Assembly (NCBI GenBank): GCA_036653735.1 | Contig: JAVVTI010000004.1 | Location: 1-43,912 of the forward strand | DNA: 43,912 nt | From: Bacilli bacterium | Lineage (GTDB): Bacteria > Bacillota_I > Bacilli_A > RF39 > UBA660 | Direction of reading: 5' to 3' | Part shown: positions 1 to 12,400 of the stretch, piece after piece | Position numbering within the stretch: position 1 is the stretch's first letter | Layout: every line of letters begins with the position of its first letter | The notes under the pieces: generated by a model | Seen by the model: the letters and a program-made list of their open reading frames with translations, nothing else | The model's database searches: none | Told to the model about the DNA's origin: nothing | Program-made: the position numbers and the translations under genes

Positions 1-501
<501 letters not shown>

Positions 502-663
502 AAGGAGAAAGACTTTTAAACAAAGATACTTTTTAGAAAAAGCACTTTTTGCTAGTTTCTGTGATTAAATCAAAACTAGTAGTAACACTTAGTTACAAAA
601 CAATAAAATTATTTTACTTAGCTTTGAGAGATTATTTCTCTCATATGTTGTTATTAACAACGT

Positions 664-692
664 ATTGTTCTTTGAAAACTAGATAATGTAAT
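664..692 (+). promoter_or_regulatory. rrn spacer boxA-like element and 5' strand of the 23S processing stem
   Basis: TGTTCTTTGAAAACT boxA-like motif. ATTGTTCTTTGAAAACTAGATAATGTAAT is largely complementary to ATTACATTATCTTGTTTTGAGAGAATAAT at 3725-3753. No tRNA seen in the 16S-23S spacer. Confidence 0.8.
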
Positions 693-787
693 TGTATATA
701 ATTTTTTATATACGCGAGTAAAATTTTTGAGTAATCTTACTTTATTGTAAGATATTAAGAAACTAACTCATCAAATTAGGATTAAGT

Positions 788-3710
<2,923 letters not shown>

Positions 3711-3778
3711 AATTTTAATTTGATATTACATTATCTTGTTTTGAGAGAATAATTGTTGTATAATAACAATATATCTAA

Positions 3779-3882
3779 ATTGGTTGCGATAGCAAAGAGG
3801 GTACACCTGATCCCATCTCGAACTCAGAAGTTAAGCTCTTTTACGCCGACGATAGTGTAAGCGAAAATAGGAAGTTGCCAAT
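3779..3882 (+). rRNA. rrf: 5S rRNA, short (~104 nt) form
   Basis: TTGG...GCCAA closing helix, CCCATCTCGAAC and GAAGTTAAGC motifs, loop E region GATAGT...GAAAATAGG. Confidence 0.95.
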
Positions 3883-3900
3883 TTTTTTTTGATTTAAAAC

Positions 3901-3929
3901 TTGTATTTTAAATACATGTTTGATATAAT
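3901..3929 (+). promoter_or_regulatory. Sigma-A-type promoter for tRNA-His
   Basis: TTGTAT-17 bp-TATAAT with extended -10 TG, 10 bp upstream of the tRNA. Confidence 0.75.
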
Positions 3930-3939
3930 ACTAATACAT

Positions 3940-4016
3940 GGCGCTATTGGTGAAGTGGTTAACACGGCGGATTGTGGTTCCGTTATGCATCGGTTCGATC
4001 CCGATATGGCGCCCCA
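3940..4016 (+). tRNA. tRNA-His (GTG)
   Basis: Cloverleaf: acceptor GCGCTAT/ATGGCGC with G-1:C73, anticodon arm GCGGA-TTGTGGT-TCCGT, T arm ATCGG-TTCGATC-CCGAT, encoded CCA. Confidence 0.97.
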
Positions 4017-4043
4017 AAAGAAAAAAATCGAATAATTCGATAT

Positions 4044-4077
4044 AAAAAAACTTAATTATTAAAATTAAGTTTTTTTT
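4044..4077. terminator. Probable bidirectional intrinsic terminator
   Basis: AAAAAAACTTAATT-ATTAA-AATTAAGTTTTTTT inverted repeat between the convergent tRNA-His and 4095..6473. Confidence 0.65.
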
Positions 4078-4094
4078 ATATTTGTAAACTTTAA

Positions 4095-6473
4095 TTAACA
4101 GCAAGTACAGCCATTAATTTGACAATTAACTATATTTAATTTTTGTTTTAAAATAGATTCTAATGTATTTATTGAATCAAGCATATCTTGAACACTCTTA
4201 TTAATACATAATAATTCATCTTTTGTTATATTACCCATAGCAAGAGCAGCCTGAATTTTTAAACCTTCTGAGTTTGCAATAGCAGCAAGAGCAGCTTGCT
4301 CAAGAGCTACAGACTGTATTAAATCATTAATTTCTTGTTTATAATTATTTCTAAAAATTAAAGTATTAACTACATTACTAGTAGAACTTCCACTTTCACC
4401 ATTAGGGTTAAGAGGATTTAATGTATATTTAAATGCTGAACTAGCCTTATTAGCAATAGGATTAGGACTAGGCATTGATGTTACAGTAACTTTAAAAGAA
4501 ACTGTTACACTATTTCCAGGTAGGATAGGATTAGTTAAATTAATTCCAGTATCAGGAGTACCTGTACTAGGAACACTTACTGATAAAGAACCTGGTAAAT
4601 AAATAGTTCCATTATTAATTGCATCAGTTATAATAACACTATCTACTGGTACATTTCCTGTATTCTTAACCAATAAATTATATGTAATAACTTGATTTAG
4701 ATAAGATACATTATCACTAGCTGTTTTAGTAGTCTCTAAAGTAGCATTTACTATTTTAGTAGTTACTGTATTACTATTTCCAGAAGCCTTCTCTCCATTA
4801 GGATTAGAAGGATCAACTGTATAAGTATAATCAACCTTTCCAGTATTTTCTATAGGATTAATAGTAGGAACAGAAGTCACTTTAACCTTAAACGTAATAG
4901 TTGCAGTACTTCCAGCAGCAATAGGAGAAGTTAGTACGATAGATGAAGTAGGATCTCCAGTAAACGGTAAAGTAGAAGTAACAGAAGATGCAACATAACT
5001 AGTTCCAGCAGGAACGGTATCAGTTACAACTACATTATTAGCAGCAACATTACCTGAGTTATGTATATTAAGAGTATAAGTTAAAATATCTCCTAATTTA
5101 GCAAAAGTTTTATCAACAGTCTTAGAGAAATTTCCATTAGAAATTAAATCAGCACTATTAATTAATGTAGAAACTAAATTAGTATTCTTAATAGGTTGAC
5201 CTGGAATAGCAACCGATGCAACATTATTAACCTGAGTATTAGGCGTTGCAGTATTTACAAGAACCTGCCAAGAAATTGTAACATCACTATTAGGAGCAAC
5301 TGAAGTAAGAGTAATTCCAGTATTAGGATTAGTTCCTGTATACGGAGTACTTACTAATAGATTCCCAGCATATGTAGTACCAGCTGGTAAAGCATCAGTT
5401 ACAACAACATTATTAACCGCAAAATTATTAGGGTTATGTCCGGTTATTGTATAAGTTAATACATCTCCTGGCTTAGCATAAGCCTTATCAACAGTTTTAG
5501 TAAATGTTTCAGGAGCAGCATTAGTTATAGTATAAACAATATTATCTCCTAGAGCAGGAGTTATATTAAGAGGCAAACTTCCTGTTGCAGGAACCGTTCC
5601 TCCATTAGTTAAATTTACTGCAGAAACAGCAACAGTATATAGAGATAAAGGACTTACTGATCCAGGTGACATTGCTTCATTAATAGTATACGTATTTCCA
5701 GGTATACCATAAATAGTAGCAGACTGTGGCTGAATACCTACAGCACTACCAGTAGTAGATACCAAGTTACTAGGAGATCCTCCTATATTTAAATCAAATT
5801 GATCAGCACTATTAATTCTAGCACCAATATTCTTCTTAATAGTTACTCTAGTAGTTACGAAACCAAAAGCTACAGCCTCTCTTCCATAAGTTTCTAAAGT
5901 TAATTTAGTAGGATTACTTGTAGCTAAAACATAAGCTGCTTGACTACTTTGATTAGTTCCAGTAATTGTTACCAAGGGAGTTCCAACACCAGTTATAGTA
6001 GGAGGATTAGGTCCTATAGTAGTAACTAAACTCCATGGATTACCAGTAGTAGTAAAAGTTAAATGCTCTGTATACTGAGGAAAATTATTAGTACTTTCAG
6101 CATCAGCTACTACAGCATTAAAATTAGGTACAACATTTCCATTAACATCCTTTACTACAATATTATAAACTTCTATTGTACTATTAGCAGAGTAAGAAGG
6201 TAACAGCGGTGTAGTTAAAGCTACATTACCTACTATTCCAGTATATTGAAGACTTCCAAAAAACGAAAACGGACGTGGTACAGGACTAGCAACAAAAGGT
6301 ACGATTGATGAAGGTATAGATTTAATATCAAACGTAACAGTACTACCATCCTTTAAAGTACCAGTTTGGTTTGTTAATATTTGACCGGGTGTTAAAGTTA
6401 AACTACCAAAATCAAACCATCCAATTGAATCAGAACCAACACCAGTACCTGGGTTTGCATAGACAAATGACAT
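4095..6473 (-). CDS. Multidomain adhesin-like protein: CshA NR2-like N-terminal domain, SpaA/prealbumin-like domain, three DUF11 repeats, C-terminal A-ENA-like helical domain with Cys-rich tail
   Basis: YANPGTG..IGWFDF, VADAEST..E...TTTG.PW and GREAVAFG resemble CshA NR2. KNIGARINSADQF opens an Ig-like domain. Three K-T-(V/A)..(L/I)TY-T/N..N..V(V/I)(V/I)TD repeats. The last ~84 aa align with the upstream 92-aa protein. No signal peptide or TM helix. Confidence 0.75.
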   Translation of the reverse strand: MSFVYANPGTGVGSDSIGWFDFGSLTLTPGQILTNQTGTLKDGSTVTFDIKSIPSSIVPFVASPVPRPFSFFGSLQYTGIVGNVALTTPLLPSYSANSTIEVYNIVVKDVNGNVVPNFNAVVADAESTNNFPQYTEHLTFTTTGNPWSLVTTIGPNPPTITGVGTPLVTITGTNQSSQAAYVLATSNPTKLTLETYGREAVAFGFVTTRVTIKKNIGARINSADQFDLNIGGSPSNLVSTTGSAVGIQPQSATIYGIPGNTYTINEAMSPGSVSPLSLYTVAVSAVNLTNGGTVPATGSLPLNITPALGDNIVYTITNAAPETFTKTVDKAYAKPGDVLTYTITGHNPNNFAVNNVVVTDALPAGTTYAGNLLVSTPYTGTNPNTGITLTSVAPNSDVTISWQVLVNTATPNTQVNNVASVAIPGQPIKNTNLVSTLINSADLISNGNFSKTVDKTFAKLGDILTYTLNIHNSGNVAANNVVVTDTVPAGTSYVASSVTSTLPFTGDPTSSIVLTSPIAAGSTATITFKVKVTSVPTINPIENTGKVDYTYTVDPSNPNGEKASGNSNTVTTKIVNATLETTKTASDNVSYLNQVITYNLLVKNTGNVPVDSVIITDAINNGTIYLPGSLSVSVPSTGTPDTGINLTNPILPGNSVTVSFKVTVTSMPSPNPIANKASSAFKYTLNPLNPNGESGSSTSNVVNTLIFRNNYKQEINDLIQSVALEQAALAAIANSEGLKIQAALAMGNITKDELLCINKSVQDMLDSINTLESILKQKLNIVNCQINGCTCC

Positions 6474-6492
6474 ATATATTCTTCCTTTCTTT

Positions 6493-6771
6493 TTAATTTA
6501 TTTGACAAATAGTACTAGAAAATAAATTTAATTTATTCTTTAGACTCATTTCTAAACTAATTACAGTATCTACTGTATTTTTAACAGACTTGTTAGCTGC
6601 AATTAAATCAGCAGGCGTAATATTAGGCATATTAATAATACTATTAAGTTTTTCACTTTCAGCATTAAGAATATGAGAGATACCTGCTTCCTCATTAGCT
6701 ATTGATTCAATTATATTACCAACAGCATCACCTCTAGTTATAGTACCAGGCTTAATTATAGGCATACCCAT
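6493..6771 (-). CDS. Small helical protein resembling the A-ENA (alpha-helical endospore appendage) fibre subunit family
   Basis: MGMP N-terminus, ITRGDAV..IIESIANEEAGISHILNAESEKL and DLIAANKSV...LEMSLKNKL helices. Strong RBS (AAAGGGGG) upstream. Family recognised from memory. Confidence 0.7.
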   Translation of the reverse strand: MGMPIIKPGTITRGDAVGNIIESIANEEAGISHILNAESEKLNSIINMPNITPADLIAANKSVKNTVDTVISLEMSLKNKLNLFSSTICQIN

Positions 6772-6929
6772 ATATAAGTCCCCCTTTCATATAAATAAAA
6801 TTTAATAATAATATTTCTTTTATTCTCTATATACTATGAAAGATAATAATATATGAAAAGAACAAACATAACAAAATAGATAATATATAAAAACATATAA
6901 CTATGATATACTTATTTATAGAGGTAAAA

Positions 6930-8114
6930 ATGATATATGACTGTATAATTATAGGTTCAGGACCATCTGGTTTAATGGCCGCTATAGAAGCATCAAAAAA
7001 TAATAAAATACTAATAATAGAAAAAAACTCATCCCCAGGAGTAAAACTTCTTTTAACAGGCAATAAAAGATGTAACCTAACTAACTTAAAAAGTAATAAT
7101 GATTTTATCAATGAAATAACTCACAATAAAAAGTATCTTTATAGTACTATAAATAAATTTGGTCCTAAAGAAATATACGATTTCTTTATAAACAATAATG
7201 TTTTATTAAAAGAAGAAGAAGATAATAAAATATTCCCAGTAAGTAATAAATCAAGAGATATTTTAGATGCTCTACTTAATAACTTAAAAGGAGTTTCTAT
7301 TAACTACAATGAAACTCTTAATAATATAATTAATGAAAACATAAAAAAAGTAATAACTAATAAAAACATATATAAAACAAAGAATATAATTATAGCACTA
7401 GGAGGTTCTTCATACCCTTTAACTGGAAGTAATGGTGATAACCTAAGAATAGCAAAATTATTAAAACAACCAACTACTGATATTTATCCTTGTGAAACAA
7501 GTATTATACTAAAAGATAACCTCTCTTTAGCAGGTACTTCTATAGAAAAAGTTAATATAAAGTATAAAAAATATAGTTCAGCAGGTAATCTAATGTTTAC
7601 TCATAAAGGTATTAGTGGTAGTGCAATAATGAAACTAAGTGAATACATTTATTTAAACAATGAAAAAGAAATCATAGTTGATTTCTTACCCGACATTACA
7701 CCCGAAGAATTACTTATTAATATAAAAGAATATGATAATAATAAAAGCATAGCTTCTTACTTAAATCAATATTTTACAAAAAAATTTATACTATACTTAC
7801 TTCAAACAATAAATATAGATAGTCAAACCTTAATAAAAAGATTACCAAGTAAATACTTAGATAATATTATAAACACAATAAAACATAAAACCTTCATAGT
7901 AAAAAGTACTGAAGATATAAAGTATTCCTATATTACAGGAGGAGGAATAGATATGAAATATATAAATACCTCTACTATGGAATCATTAATAAACAAAGGA
8001 ATATATTTTGTAGGAGAATCATTAGATTTACATGGTCCACTTGGAGGATATAATATCACCATTGCTTTATCAACCGGTTACACAGCAGGTTCTAATATAA
8101 ATAAGAAACTATAA
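6930..8114 (+). CDS. HI0933/YhiN-family NAD(P)/FAD-dependent oxidoreductase
   Basis: IIGSGPSG Rossmann motif, TGNKRCNLTN, GGSSYP.TGSNG, FTHKGISG, GGYNI..ALSTG. RBS GAGG favours ATG 6930 over 6903. Confidence 0.92.
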   Translation: MIYDCIIIGSGPSGLMAAIEASKNNKILIIEKNSSPGVKLLLTGNKRCNLTNLKSNNDFINEITHNKKYLYSTINKFGPKEIYDFFINNNVLLKEEEDNKIFPVSNKSRDILDALLNNLKGVSINYNETLNNIINENIKKVITNKNIYKTKNIIIALGGSSYPLTGSNGDNLRIAKLLKQPTTDIYPCETSIILKDNLSLAGTSIEKVNIKYKKYSSAGNLMFTHKGISGSAIMKLSEYIYLNNEKEIIVDFLPDITPEELLINIKEYDNNKSIASYLNQYFTKKFILYLLQTINIDSQTLIKRLPSKYLDNIINTIKHKTFIVKSTEDIKYSYITGGGIDMKYINTSTMESLINKGIYFVGESLDLHGPLGGYNITIALSTGYTAGSNINKKL

Positions 8115-11785: not shown

Positions 11786-12400
11786 ATGGAGAACAATAAA
11801 GGACAGACAATTTTCTTGTCAGTAATTGGAGTTGCAACTTTATTAGTAGCTATTATTGGTGCTACTTTTGCGTATTTCACTGCAAGTGTTGCTGGTAACG
11901 ATAAAGCTTCATCAATATTAGTTAATACAGCTACTATAGCAAGTATTAATTTTCAAGATGGACCGCTTATATCTTTAGCAAATGCACTTCCAGGAGATTC
12001 TGCTACTAAGAATTTCACTGTTGCATTAGCTGGAACTGATAGTACTACTGTAGATATGTCATATGAAGTATTGTTAACTACTACTAATAGTGGTATAACA
12101 GACTTAAAATATACATTAACTTCTACTGGTGGTACACCTGTTCCTGCTGGACAACAAGCTTTAGGAACAACTGTAACTAATAAAAAAATTGGTACAGGAA
12201 CATTCTTAGCTGGAGCTACTGGAGCAGCAAGAAGTCATTCATGGAGTTTAGTAATTTTATTCCCTGAAACTGGCTCTAACCAAAATACACAACAAGGTAA
12301 GTCATTTACAGGAGCTGTTCAAGTTAAGTTCGCTGGTGGAAATGATATTTATTATAACAATTCTAATACAGGCGGAACTGGAACTAAACCAACAGTTTAA
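11786..12400 (+). CDS. Secreted protein with SipW-class signal peptide (TasA/CalY-like)
   Basis: Hydrophobic stretch ending GATFAYFT, LPGDS motif, C-terminal NQNTQQGKSFTG. Thr/Gly/Ala-rich. Confidence 0.7.
   Translation: MENNKGQTIFLSVIGVATLLVAIIGATFAYFTASVAGNDKASSILVNTATIASINFQDGPLISLANALPGDSATKNFTVALAGTDSTTVDMSYEVLLTTTNSGITDLKYTLTSTGGTPVPAGQQALGTTVTNKKIGTGTFLAGATGAARSHSWSLVILFPETGSNQNTQQGKSFTGAVQVKFAGGNDIYYNNSNTGGTGTKPTV

Follow-up and report, generated by a model that had tools for sequence, protein, structure and literature searches.

A-ENA fibres of Bacillus thuringiensis subsp. israelensis (Bti) are the closest described counterpart of the system analysed here. According to the main text of the paper that reports them (PMC13111695), the A-ENA subunit self-assembles and crosslinks in the cytoplasm of Escherichia coli without accessory factors, and the a-ena promoter is of the SigK type and active only in sporulating cells. 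Five types of isopeptide bond are described: the G2 amine to Q44 (type 1, catalyst E41), K42 to N64 (type 2, catalyst E39), K84 to E29 (type 3, catalyst E28), K77 to E78 (type 4, catalyst E28) and K76 to Q82 (type 5, catalyst E86), the last of which joins two protofilaments. Fibres of A-ENA1, in which bond types 1 and 5 are missing, remain isomorphous and stable. The same text describes fusions of the subunit. In the A-BclA 'ruffles', an N-terminal A-ENA domain is joined to a collagen-like region and C1q, rarer passengers include SdrD_B, OmcB (PF01345, which is DUF11) and 4Fe-4S, and the A-ENA moiety is proposed to insert in the fibre or at its end with a functional passenger. Here, a two-gene locus is described from a 43,912-nucleotide stretch of a Bacilli bacterium (assembly GCA_036653735.1, contig JAVVTI010000004.1, positions 1–43,912), the whole of which is referred to as the window. 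The genes encode a 92-residue protein (P0002) and a 792-residue protein (P0001), and the pair is likely to be an operon for an A-ENA-type ('sporesilk') endospore fibre with a fibre-docked adhesin. What is observed is the homology of the proteins, their domain architecture, the conservation of crosslink residues, the linkage of the two genes and the restriction of the A-ENA domain to spoIVA-positive genomes; polymerisation, crosslinking, co-assembly, the timing of expression and the adhesive function are inferred.

The two co-oriented open reading frames (ORFs) lie on the minus strand, both begin with ATG and are separated by 19 bp (6474–6492), exactly as an earlier, sequence-only reading of the window had placed them (Table 1). 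Shine-Dalgarno-like sites read from the sequence precede both genes, with AAAGGAAG before position 6473 for the larger one. The earlier reading had also aligned the small protein with the end of the large one. In agreement with this alignment, BLASTP matches residues 17–92 of P0002 to residues 715–787 of P0001 (30/76 identities or 39%, 68% positives, E 4e-14), and the residue strings on which the alignment had been based are present in the two proteins. The match, which covers the last ~76 residues of the large protein, is real and not due to chance.

Sequence and predicted fold both identify P0002 as a true homologue of A-ENA from B. thuringiensis, in line with the earlier reading. A phmmer search against all PDB chain sequences returned a single match, 9ihh_A (E 8.1e-13, residues 1–86), which belongs to the entry 'Ex vivo spore-silk A-ENA fibers' (PDB 9IHH; PMC13111695). 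Comparison with the Bti a-ena product (plasmid NZ_CP013279.1) by BLASTP gave 37/86 identities (43%) at E 1e-19, with a shared N-terminal MGMP. The MGMPII N-terminus is conserved, and position 2 is Gly or Ser in 118 of 120 small homologues. An AlphaFold2 (AF2) model of P0002 built with 113 homologues has a mean predicted local distance difference test score (pLDDT) of 80 and shows a 12-residue tail followed by helices at residues 13–46 and 53–89. The architecture is that of an N-terminal latch (MGMPIIKPGTIT), a helix, a loop and a second helix, with one Cys residue (C89). When this model was compared with the PDB by Foldseek, 9ihh_A ranked first (E 5.4e-3, probability 1.00, TMq 0.73, 42% identity), and the remaining matches were generic hairpins with E values of at least 0.28. 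PF26595.1 is a precomputed Pfam assignment common to P0002 and P0001; the whole-protein Pfam scan gave no family for P0002, and its NCBIfam match to PduB (E 0.011) was rejected as spurious.

Conservation of the crosslinking residues was evaluated in Bti A-ENA numbering, using the seven A-ENA domains of this genome and then an alignment of 120 small and 59 large homologues. The type 2 triad (K42/N64/E39) is found in 7/7 of the genome's own domains, in 120/120 small and in 59/59 large homologues. For type 3, K84 is kept by all 59 large homologues and by 119/120 small ones. Position 29 is Glu in all 120 small proteins and, in the 59 large ones, Gln in 50 and Glu in 9, while position 28 is Glu in 101 and Gln in 19 of the small proteins and Glu in 53 and Gln in 6 of the large ones. 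The corresponding residues are K41/N60/E38 (type 2) and K80/E28/E27 (type 3) in P0002, and K739–N758 with E736 (type 2) and K778–Q726 with E725 (type 3) in P0001. Because the type 2 and type 3 residues are kept and the donor lysines K77 and K76 are lost, the two main axial bonds are predicted to be able to form, and types 4 and 5 are not. For type 1, the counterparts in P0002 are G2, N43 and E40, and a bond between the N-terminus and N43 is possible. The residues needed for the self-crosslinking that was proposed earlier are thus conserved for two, perhaps three, of the five bond types.

The type 1 positions differ between the two kinds of protein. Glu41 is present in 120/120 small homologues, and the large homologues have Gln44 in 59/59 cases, Ala in place of Glu41 in 54/59 and, in the P0001-type hairpin, no free N-terminus. 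As Gln44 is kept and Glu41 is lost in the large proteins, and Glu41 and a free N-terminus are kept in the small ones, the two partners look complementary in this clade, and a latch lock in trans is tentatively proposed: the N-terminal latch of P0002 could lock the adhesin into the fibre, which would make the lock directional and heterotypic. A second difference concerns Cys residues. The Cys near the C-terminus of P0002 (C89, in 'ICQ') is invariant in alignment A1, and exactly one Cys is found in 115/120 small homologues. The large proteins have a counterpart (C784) plus further Cys residues, whereas Bti A-ENA has none. A disulfide bond through this invariant Cys may replace the lost inter-protofilament isopeptide, resulting in a hybrid fibre.

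The loss of the inter-protofilament K76–Q82 bond, and the presence of an invariant Cys and Cys-rich tails instead, would also be expected if the hairpins polymerised only as a short patch that is part of the spore coat or outer layer or sits on it. In that case P0001 would anchor or space structures at the spore surface, with its head bound to the spore itself, and would not be a tip or side adhesin on long free fibres. Cys-rich proteins are typical of spore coat and exosporium layers, and seven A-ENA domains on four passengers would fit a mixed surface layer. P0002, however, keeps the latch and both of the axial triads that build long A-ENA protofilaments, and the complex model described below gives a stacked, fibre-like arrangement. 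Since published A-ENA1 fibres that lack types 1 and 5 are isomorphous and stable (PMC13111695), the loss of type 5 here is no bar to membership of the A-ENA family. A short patch is therefore considered unlikely.

P0001 can be divided into five parts. It begins with a CshA_NR2 head, continues with a SpaA_3 domain and three DUF11 domains, and ends with the A-ENA hairpin and the tail CQINGCTCC. When residues 1–210 were scanned alone, the head matched the complete PF18651 profile (positions 1–196 of 196) with 53.8 bits against a cut-off of 24. An hmmscan of all 792 residues misses this domain even at E <= 1, although an 89%-identical orthologue shows CshA_NR2 in a whole-protein scan. In the SpaA_3 domain, K214 and E266 of the K214/E266/N318 triad are nearly invariant and N318 is invariant across 26 orthologues. 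The DUF11 family is matched in three stretches (PF01345, E 3e-23; TIGR01451, E 1.3e-36), and each repeat has a Lys-Asp-Asn triad (K326/D360/N417, K451/D485/N543 and K583/D617/N675); all nine residues are invariant in the same 26 orthologues (alignment A2). The profile of this region also matches the CLIPPER structure 9ifr_A (E 2.2e-5), with the Lys, Asp and Asn of the middle repeat aligned to those of 9ifr_A, where the triad is Lys715/Asp748/Asn806 (PMC12617251). Judging from these conserved residues, the four rod domains probably carry internal isopeptide bonds. The earlier assignment of a CshA NR2-like head on a DUF11 stalk is consequently retained, with a SpaA_3 domain added to the stalk.

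The C-terminal hairpin of P0001 matches 9ihh_A with E 1.4e-5 as a single sequence and E 1.1e-9 as a 26-sequence profile. In the AF2 model (pLDDT 88), the protein is all-beta to residue 707 and is followed by helices at residues 712–745 and 751–787. Together with the BLASTP match to P0002, these results agree with the idea that the large protein carries the same helical domain at its C-terminus. C784 is invariant and C792 nearly invariant in the 26 orthologues. Foldseek with the whole P0001 model returned generic Ig-rod matches only (PrgB, integrin legs, antigen I/II), none of them specific to the head, and no collagen or C1q match was found in P0001, in which the A-ENA domain occupies residues 712–787 of 792.

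To model co-assembly, the structure of a complex of two P0002 copies (113-row alignment) and residues 700–792 of P0001 was predicted. The complex scored 0.82 (runs of 0.81, 0.83 and 0.82), compared to 0.00 in all three controls, against a mark that, in the calibration of the tool, is reached by 58/80 solved complexes and 2/110 mismatched pairs. Agreement in contacts between runs is 89% or higher, and the pLDDT of the partner is at least 80. Both P0002 copies contact nearly all of P0001 residues 711–787, which places the hairpin between them in the manner of a cross-alpha stack. This arrangement supports, as a model-based likeness, the earlier suggestion that the large protein co-assembles through its C-terminal hairpin.

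The complex prediction covered only a 2:1 assembly, and the two genes are almost always adjacent, with a gap of 18–75 nt in most loci. Both observations would likewise suit a P0002 that does not polymerise and instead caps or chaperones the P0001 hairpin as a 1:1 or 2:1 partner. Single-domain genes, however, are also found without an adjacent large gene (on contig C56 of this genome) and in tandem arrays (six at locus L059), and the small protein itself has invariant residues at the positions that form axial links between like subunits. In addition, the characterised homologue polymerises on its own (PMC13111695). A capping or chaperone role is accordingly the least probable of the alternatives considered and is given very little weight.

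Neither protein has a signal-peptide-like or transmembrane segment in Kyte-Doolittle plots with 19-residue windows, as had been noted from the sequence. The highest window mean is 1.24 for P0001 (0.61 in the first 40 windows) and 0.58 for P0002, and the first 10 residues of P0001 include no Lys or Arg. P0001 has no C-terminal LPxTG; its sole LPxTG-like string, LPFTG at residue 502, is part of a DUF11 repeat. Because export signals are lacking, synthesis of both proteins in the mother cell and release by lysis is the route that is proposed for them.

The upstream regions are consistent with this route. The motif CATAnnnTA, which is taken here to be the −10 consensus of mother-cell sigma factors, occurs at −100 to −20 in 6/7 A-ENA-domain genes, compared to 37/676 ORFs of the genome (ORFs of at least 60 residues with a Shine-Dalgarno-like site; 27/548 for those of at least 120 residues). 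The sigK gene is among the 37. Upstream of the fusion gene on contig C10, the sequence fits AC-N16-CATACTATA, and the regions on C4 and C7 share CTTTTCAT-N14-CATAG. An attempt to assign the boxes to sigma-E or sigma-K from the −35 spacing gave no decision, and the claim is limited to a CATA-type, mother-cell-like box. Within positions 3900–7000, no sigma-70-like site scored above 9/12 (13 sites found, 17.8 expected).

The domains of P0001 and a weak promoter allow a further reading, in which the pair has nothing to do with sporulation and encodes a matrix fibre that vegetative cells or a biofilm would release by autolysis or by an export route not yet recognised. At 6874–6846, upstream of the pair, there is a weak sigma-70-like site (9/12), a sortase gene is present elsewhere in the genome, and CshA-, DUF11- and SpaA-type domains are normally found on vegetative surfaces, as described in the available text of PMC12617251. 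This reading is at odds with the lack of a signal peptide, C-terminal sorting signal and transmembrane segment, with the CATA-type −10 box common to the paralogues, with the sporulation-specific nature of the characterised homologue (PMC13111695) and with the finding of the A-ENA domain only in spoIVA-positive genomes (11 genome matches in two overlapping samples). It is thus viewed as distinctly improbable.

In the leader between the CATA box and the ribosome-binding site, a hairpin (GAAUAAA...UUUAUUC) is observed in the window (6772–6828, minus strand) and in the leaders of three other loci (L045, L046 and L054). Its z-scores are weak in the four leaders folded (−0.45 to −1.64), and the hairpin was not used as evidence. 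Such a stem might stabilise the mRNA or act as a palindromic operator.

The genome bin comprises 1.06 Mb in 112 contigs with 94% completeness and 27% GC, in keeping with the genome-reduced lineage that had been supposed. A search for sporulation genes, which the earlier reading had put forward as a check, identified Spo0A_C (118 bits), SpoIVA and SigK (NF004471, 289 bits vs a cut-off of 252); SigE- and SigG-like genes were also found as best matches, yet they fall below the equivalog cut-offs. The genome encodes seven A-ENA domains on four different passengers, in genes that amount to ~8.3 kb or ~0.8% of its DNA. Apart from the pair in the window, contig C7 (13713–16704) carries a 790-residue P0001 paralogue followed by a 191-residue subunit with a ~100-residue C-terminal extension. 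On C56 (322–2370), a 97-residue subunit is divergent from a 406-residue, very Cys-rich fusion without a Pfam match, and C10 (13265–14449) encodes a 394-residue fusion in which a pAdhesive_15 ice-binding-like domain is joined by a Thr-rich linker to A-ENA. The A-ENA domain is C-terminal in 4/4 fusions of the genome.

Full-length orthologues of P0001 were found at 35 loci (47–77% identity) in metagenome-assembled genomes (MAGs) labelled as Bacilli, Erysipelotrichaceae, Longicatena, Oscillospiraceae, Lachnospiraceae, Anaerovoracaceae, Clostridia and others. Of the 37 large-gene starts that could be assessed, 33 have a small A-ENA gene on the same strand within 300 nt upstream, and this is the case at 32/33 loci; the other four starts are that of locus L057 and those of three second copies in tandem arrays. 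Across 199 genomes sampled from the phylum, the A-ENA domain is present in 7/14 spoIVA-positive and 0/185 spoIVA-negative genomes, and in a set of 41 genomes made up of relatives, in 4/27 and 0/14, respectively. As the sampled genomes are related and not independent, this link to spoIVA is an association and not a statistical test. The domain was found in 3/40 relatives.

Over ~790 residues, P0001 is 53–61% identical between most MAGs labelled as Clostridia-type families and this Bacilli-type genome (L040–L074). This identity across families, together with the A-ENA domain not being found in same-family genomes, suggests that the gene pair has spread laterally among gut spore formers, as far as sequence comparison can indicate.

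To survey the wider family, a profile of the seven A-ENA domains was searched against 1.84 billion representatives, which yielded 2588 proteins at E <= 0.001, of which 1313 also reach E <= 1e-10. The best 150, a set that is biased towards relatives of the query, comprise 53 single-domain proteins, 31 in which A-ENA is N-terminal and the passenger C-terminal, 60 with the reverse layout and 6 that contain several domains. The variant with a C-terminal A-ENA domain is thus common in metagenomes. The passengers in the 60 are DUF11 (18), DUF7507 (13), SdrD_B (10), Bact_surface_Ig-like (9), pAdhesive_15 (5), SpaA (4), CshA_NR2 (4), Collagen_bind (4) and LRR_5 (1). A word-based search for longer proteins with P0002 returned a single 163-residue protein and was of no use for fusions.

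In the mechanism that is proposed for the pair, P0002 would be the major subunit, a latched helical hairpin that stacks into cross-alpha protofilaments. Axial neighbours would be joined by autocatalytic isopeptide bonds between K41 and N60 (catalyst E38) and between K80 and E28 (catalyst E27). P0001 would be a minor subunit whose C-terminal hairpin slots into the stack via the same two triads, grafting a rigid four-domain rod tipped by a CshA_NR2-type adhesive head onto the fibre. Synthesis of both proteins would most likely take place in the mother cell at a late stage of sporulation, with lysis of that cell setting them free. The outcome would be spores with a sticky, very stable fibre coat.

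Several results weigh against this interpretation, in whole or in part. The A-ENA domain was found in none of 24 other same-family genomes, of which 21/24 have spoIVA, so the fibre is regarded as an accessory trait and not as core sporulation machinery. The Foldseek E value of P0002 exceeds 0.001, and helical hairpins are low-information folds. As a monomer, the P0001 hairpin has a pLDDT of only 52–72. The score of the complex may stem from likeness to a solved complex, 9IHH, that the predictor had learned, and with custom alignments and two copies of one chain the calibration is only roughly applicable, so that the result is read as likeness and not as binding. With respect to expression, CATAnnnTA is a short motif in a 27%-GC genome, and the strict form is present in only 14/39 orthologous upstream regions; the 9/12 sigma-70-like site also counts here. 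At the latch acceptor position 44, the 120 small homologues have Met in 48 cases, Gln in 34 and Asn in 30. Leu takes the place of K77 in 7/7 of the genome's own domains and 108/120 small homologues, and the six commonest residues at K76, which account for 113/120 small homologues, include no Lys. With two of five isopeptide types lost, fibre geometry and stability may differ from those of Bti.

A broader proposal is that the A-ENA hairpin serves as a general, secretion-independent covalent docking module, which grafts many adhesins onto the fibres of gut spore formers. This generalisation is tentative and rather doubtful at present. The passengers would include DUF11/CLIPPER, SdrD_B, Ig-like, ice-binding-like and LRR domains, and the module would be a spore-side counterpart of sortase anchoring. 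If the fibre reading is correct, sporesilk-type fibres are not confined to insect-killing Bacillus, and a widespread route to sticky spores exists in anaerobic gut spore formers, including those with genomes near 1 Mb. The C-terminal A-ENA layout, which outnumbers the other fusion types in the best 150 representatives, would then point to a modular, export-free and self-crosslinking display system. Such a system would be relevant to spore transmission, gut colonisation and protein-material engineering, where it may offer natural alternatives to SpyTag-like chemistry, and would explain the annotation puzzle of extracellular-type adhesins that have no signal peptide.

Table 1 Features of the gene pair and its flanks (positions in the window)
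Feature	Position	Strand	Basis
P0002 gene, 92-residue single-domain A-ENA-type fibre subunit (putative)	6493..6771	-	phmmer, BLASTP, AF2, Foldseek
P0001 gene, 792-residue fusion: adhesin-like rod ending in A-ENA hairpin	4095..6473	-	domain scans, AF2
CshA_NR2-like head (residues 15–206)	5856..6431	-	PF18651, E 3.7e-14
SpaA_3 prealbumin-like domain (residues 210–319), candidate Lys-Glu-Asn triad	5517..5846	-	PF20674, E 9.6e-21
Three DUF11/CLIPPER Ig-like stalk domains (residues ~323–707)	4353..5507	-	PF01345, TIGR01451
C-terminal A-ENA hairpin of P0001 (residues 712–787)	4113..4340	-	BLASTP to P0002, 9ihh_A match, AF2 helices
Cys-rich tail CQINGCTCC (residues 784–792); C784 is the counterpart of P0002 C89	4098..4124	-	alignments
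CATAGTATA, sigma-E/sigma-K-type −10-like box, 59–67 nt 5' of the P0002 ATG	6830..6838	-	CATAnnnTA motif
Shine-Dalgarno-like AAAGGGGG of the P0002 gene	6780..6787	-	read from sequence
AT-rich inverted repeat then T run, directly 3' of the P0001 stop codon	4044..4077	-	by eye

The pair sits between an rRNA operon and housekeeping genes. Positions 1–3883 of the window contain the 3' end of a 16S gene followed by the 23S and 5S rRNA genes, and then a tRNA-His(GTG) gene (3941–4016); all of these are convergent with the P0001 gene and directly downstream of it. The inverted repeat listed in Table 1 is a possible terminator shared with this tRNA gene, but it was not among the calls of a terminator scan that required at least three G-C pairs. 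The window has a GC content of ~25% outside the rRNA genes. The neighbouring genes encode an HI0933-like flavoprotein, a NUDIX protein, an amino-acid ABC transporter, an M73-like protein, LigA, a GGDEF protein and an LCP protein, and no amidase, chaperone, assembly or export gene is found among the genes that flank the pair. A phage origin of the pair was rejected, as the flanks are not phage-like. The M73-like protein (11786–12400, plus strand, 5 kb from the pair) has 204 residues and a weak Peptidase_M73 (camelysin/TasA) match (E 1.4e-5, 25.5 bits vs a cut-off of 22.5); it may be another fibre-type protein.

A separate observation concerns the spoIVA gene of this genome, which is interrupted. 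Codons 1–401 end contig C79 (879–2081), the last 31 nt of which overlap the end of contig C10 (28177–31477). After the overlap, C10 contains ~3 kb that encode a large serine recombinase (Resolvase, E 2e-25; Recombinase, E 2e-16) in addition to ORFs of 248 and 96 residues, and then spoIVA residues 400–492. In the complete genome G074, the two parts of spoIVA lie ~91 kb apart on one chromosome, and in five relatives (G001, G006, G010, G011 and G012), the gene is split near residue 122. These interruptions look like skin/SPbeta-type intervening elements, which are already known in sigK, gerE and spsM, to the extent that the consulted literature covers them.

Compared with Bti A-ENA (Q8KNV8; 9IHH), as presented in the main text of PMC13111695, the locus shares a ~10-kDa helical hairpin, the MGMP... 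latch, the type 2 and type 3 residues, the absence of an export signal, a CATA-type promoter box, a spore-forming host and several paralogues per genome. It differs in that the K77 and K76 donor lysines are absent and an invariant C-terminal Cys is present. The genes are chromosomal and adjacent to an rRNA operon rather than on a toxin plasmid, with no amidase gene between them and no toxin genes nearby, and the host is uncultured with a genome of ~1 Mb and 27% GC.

As in the A-ENA fusions of the same report (PMC13111695), a domain and passenger are encoded beside a single-domain subunit, and the mechanism proposed is the same. Unlike in the A-BclA ruffles, the passenger of P0001 is N-terminal and the A-ENA domain C-terminal, with no collagen or C1q match; because of this order, the hairpin has no free latch amine and the passenger would leave the hairpin from helix 1. 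In a fusion gene on a B. thuringiensis HD1011 plasmid, the A-ENA domain is at the N-terminus, as in the ruffles. No description of the C-terminal layout was found in the literature searched or in the text of PMC13111695, whose supplementary figures may show it. The sequence-only reading is correct in substance, but the 'different cargo architecture' that it claimed holds for the position of the domain with respect to that main text, and not for the passengers, since SdrD_B and OmcB (DUF11) are already listed there. What is new here is the C-terminal A-ENA position, the changed crosslink set and the host lineage; the family and its fusions were already published.

The rod itself resembles that of fibrillar adhesins such as Acinetobacter silvestris B9T28_05395 (9IFR), which, in the portion of PMC12617251 consulted, has a CshA_NR2-like head and an Ig-like stalk with conserved Lys-Asp-Asn triads. 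The head and SpaA_3 region of P0001 is ~30% identical to Sphingomonadales proteins. Adhesins of the 9IFR type have a signal peptide and an anchor (OmpA-like or LPXTG), whereas P0001 lacks both and ends in A-ENA. Finally, the S-ENA and L-ENA fibres (DUF3992) with BclA-type tip fibrillae, as far as the sources consulted describe them, are spore appendages that are similar in having small self-assembling subunits, a minor adhesive subunit and stabilisation by covalent links, in their case disulfides. Their fold is a beta jellyroll, which is unrelated to the helical hairpin of A-ENA.

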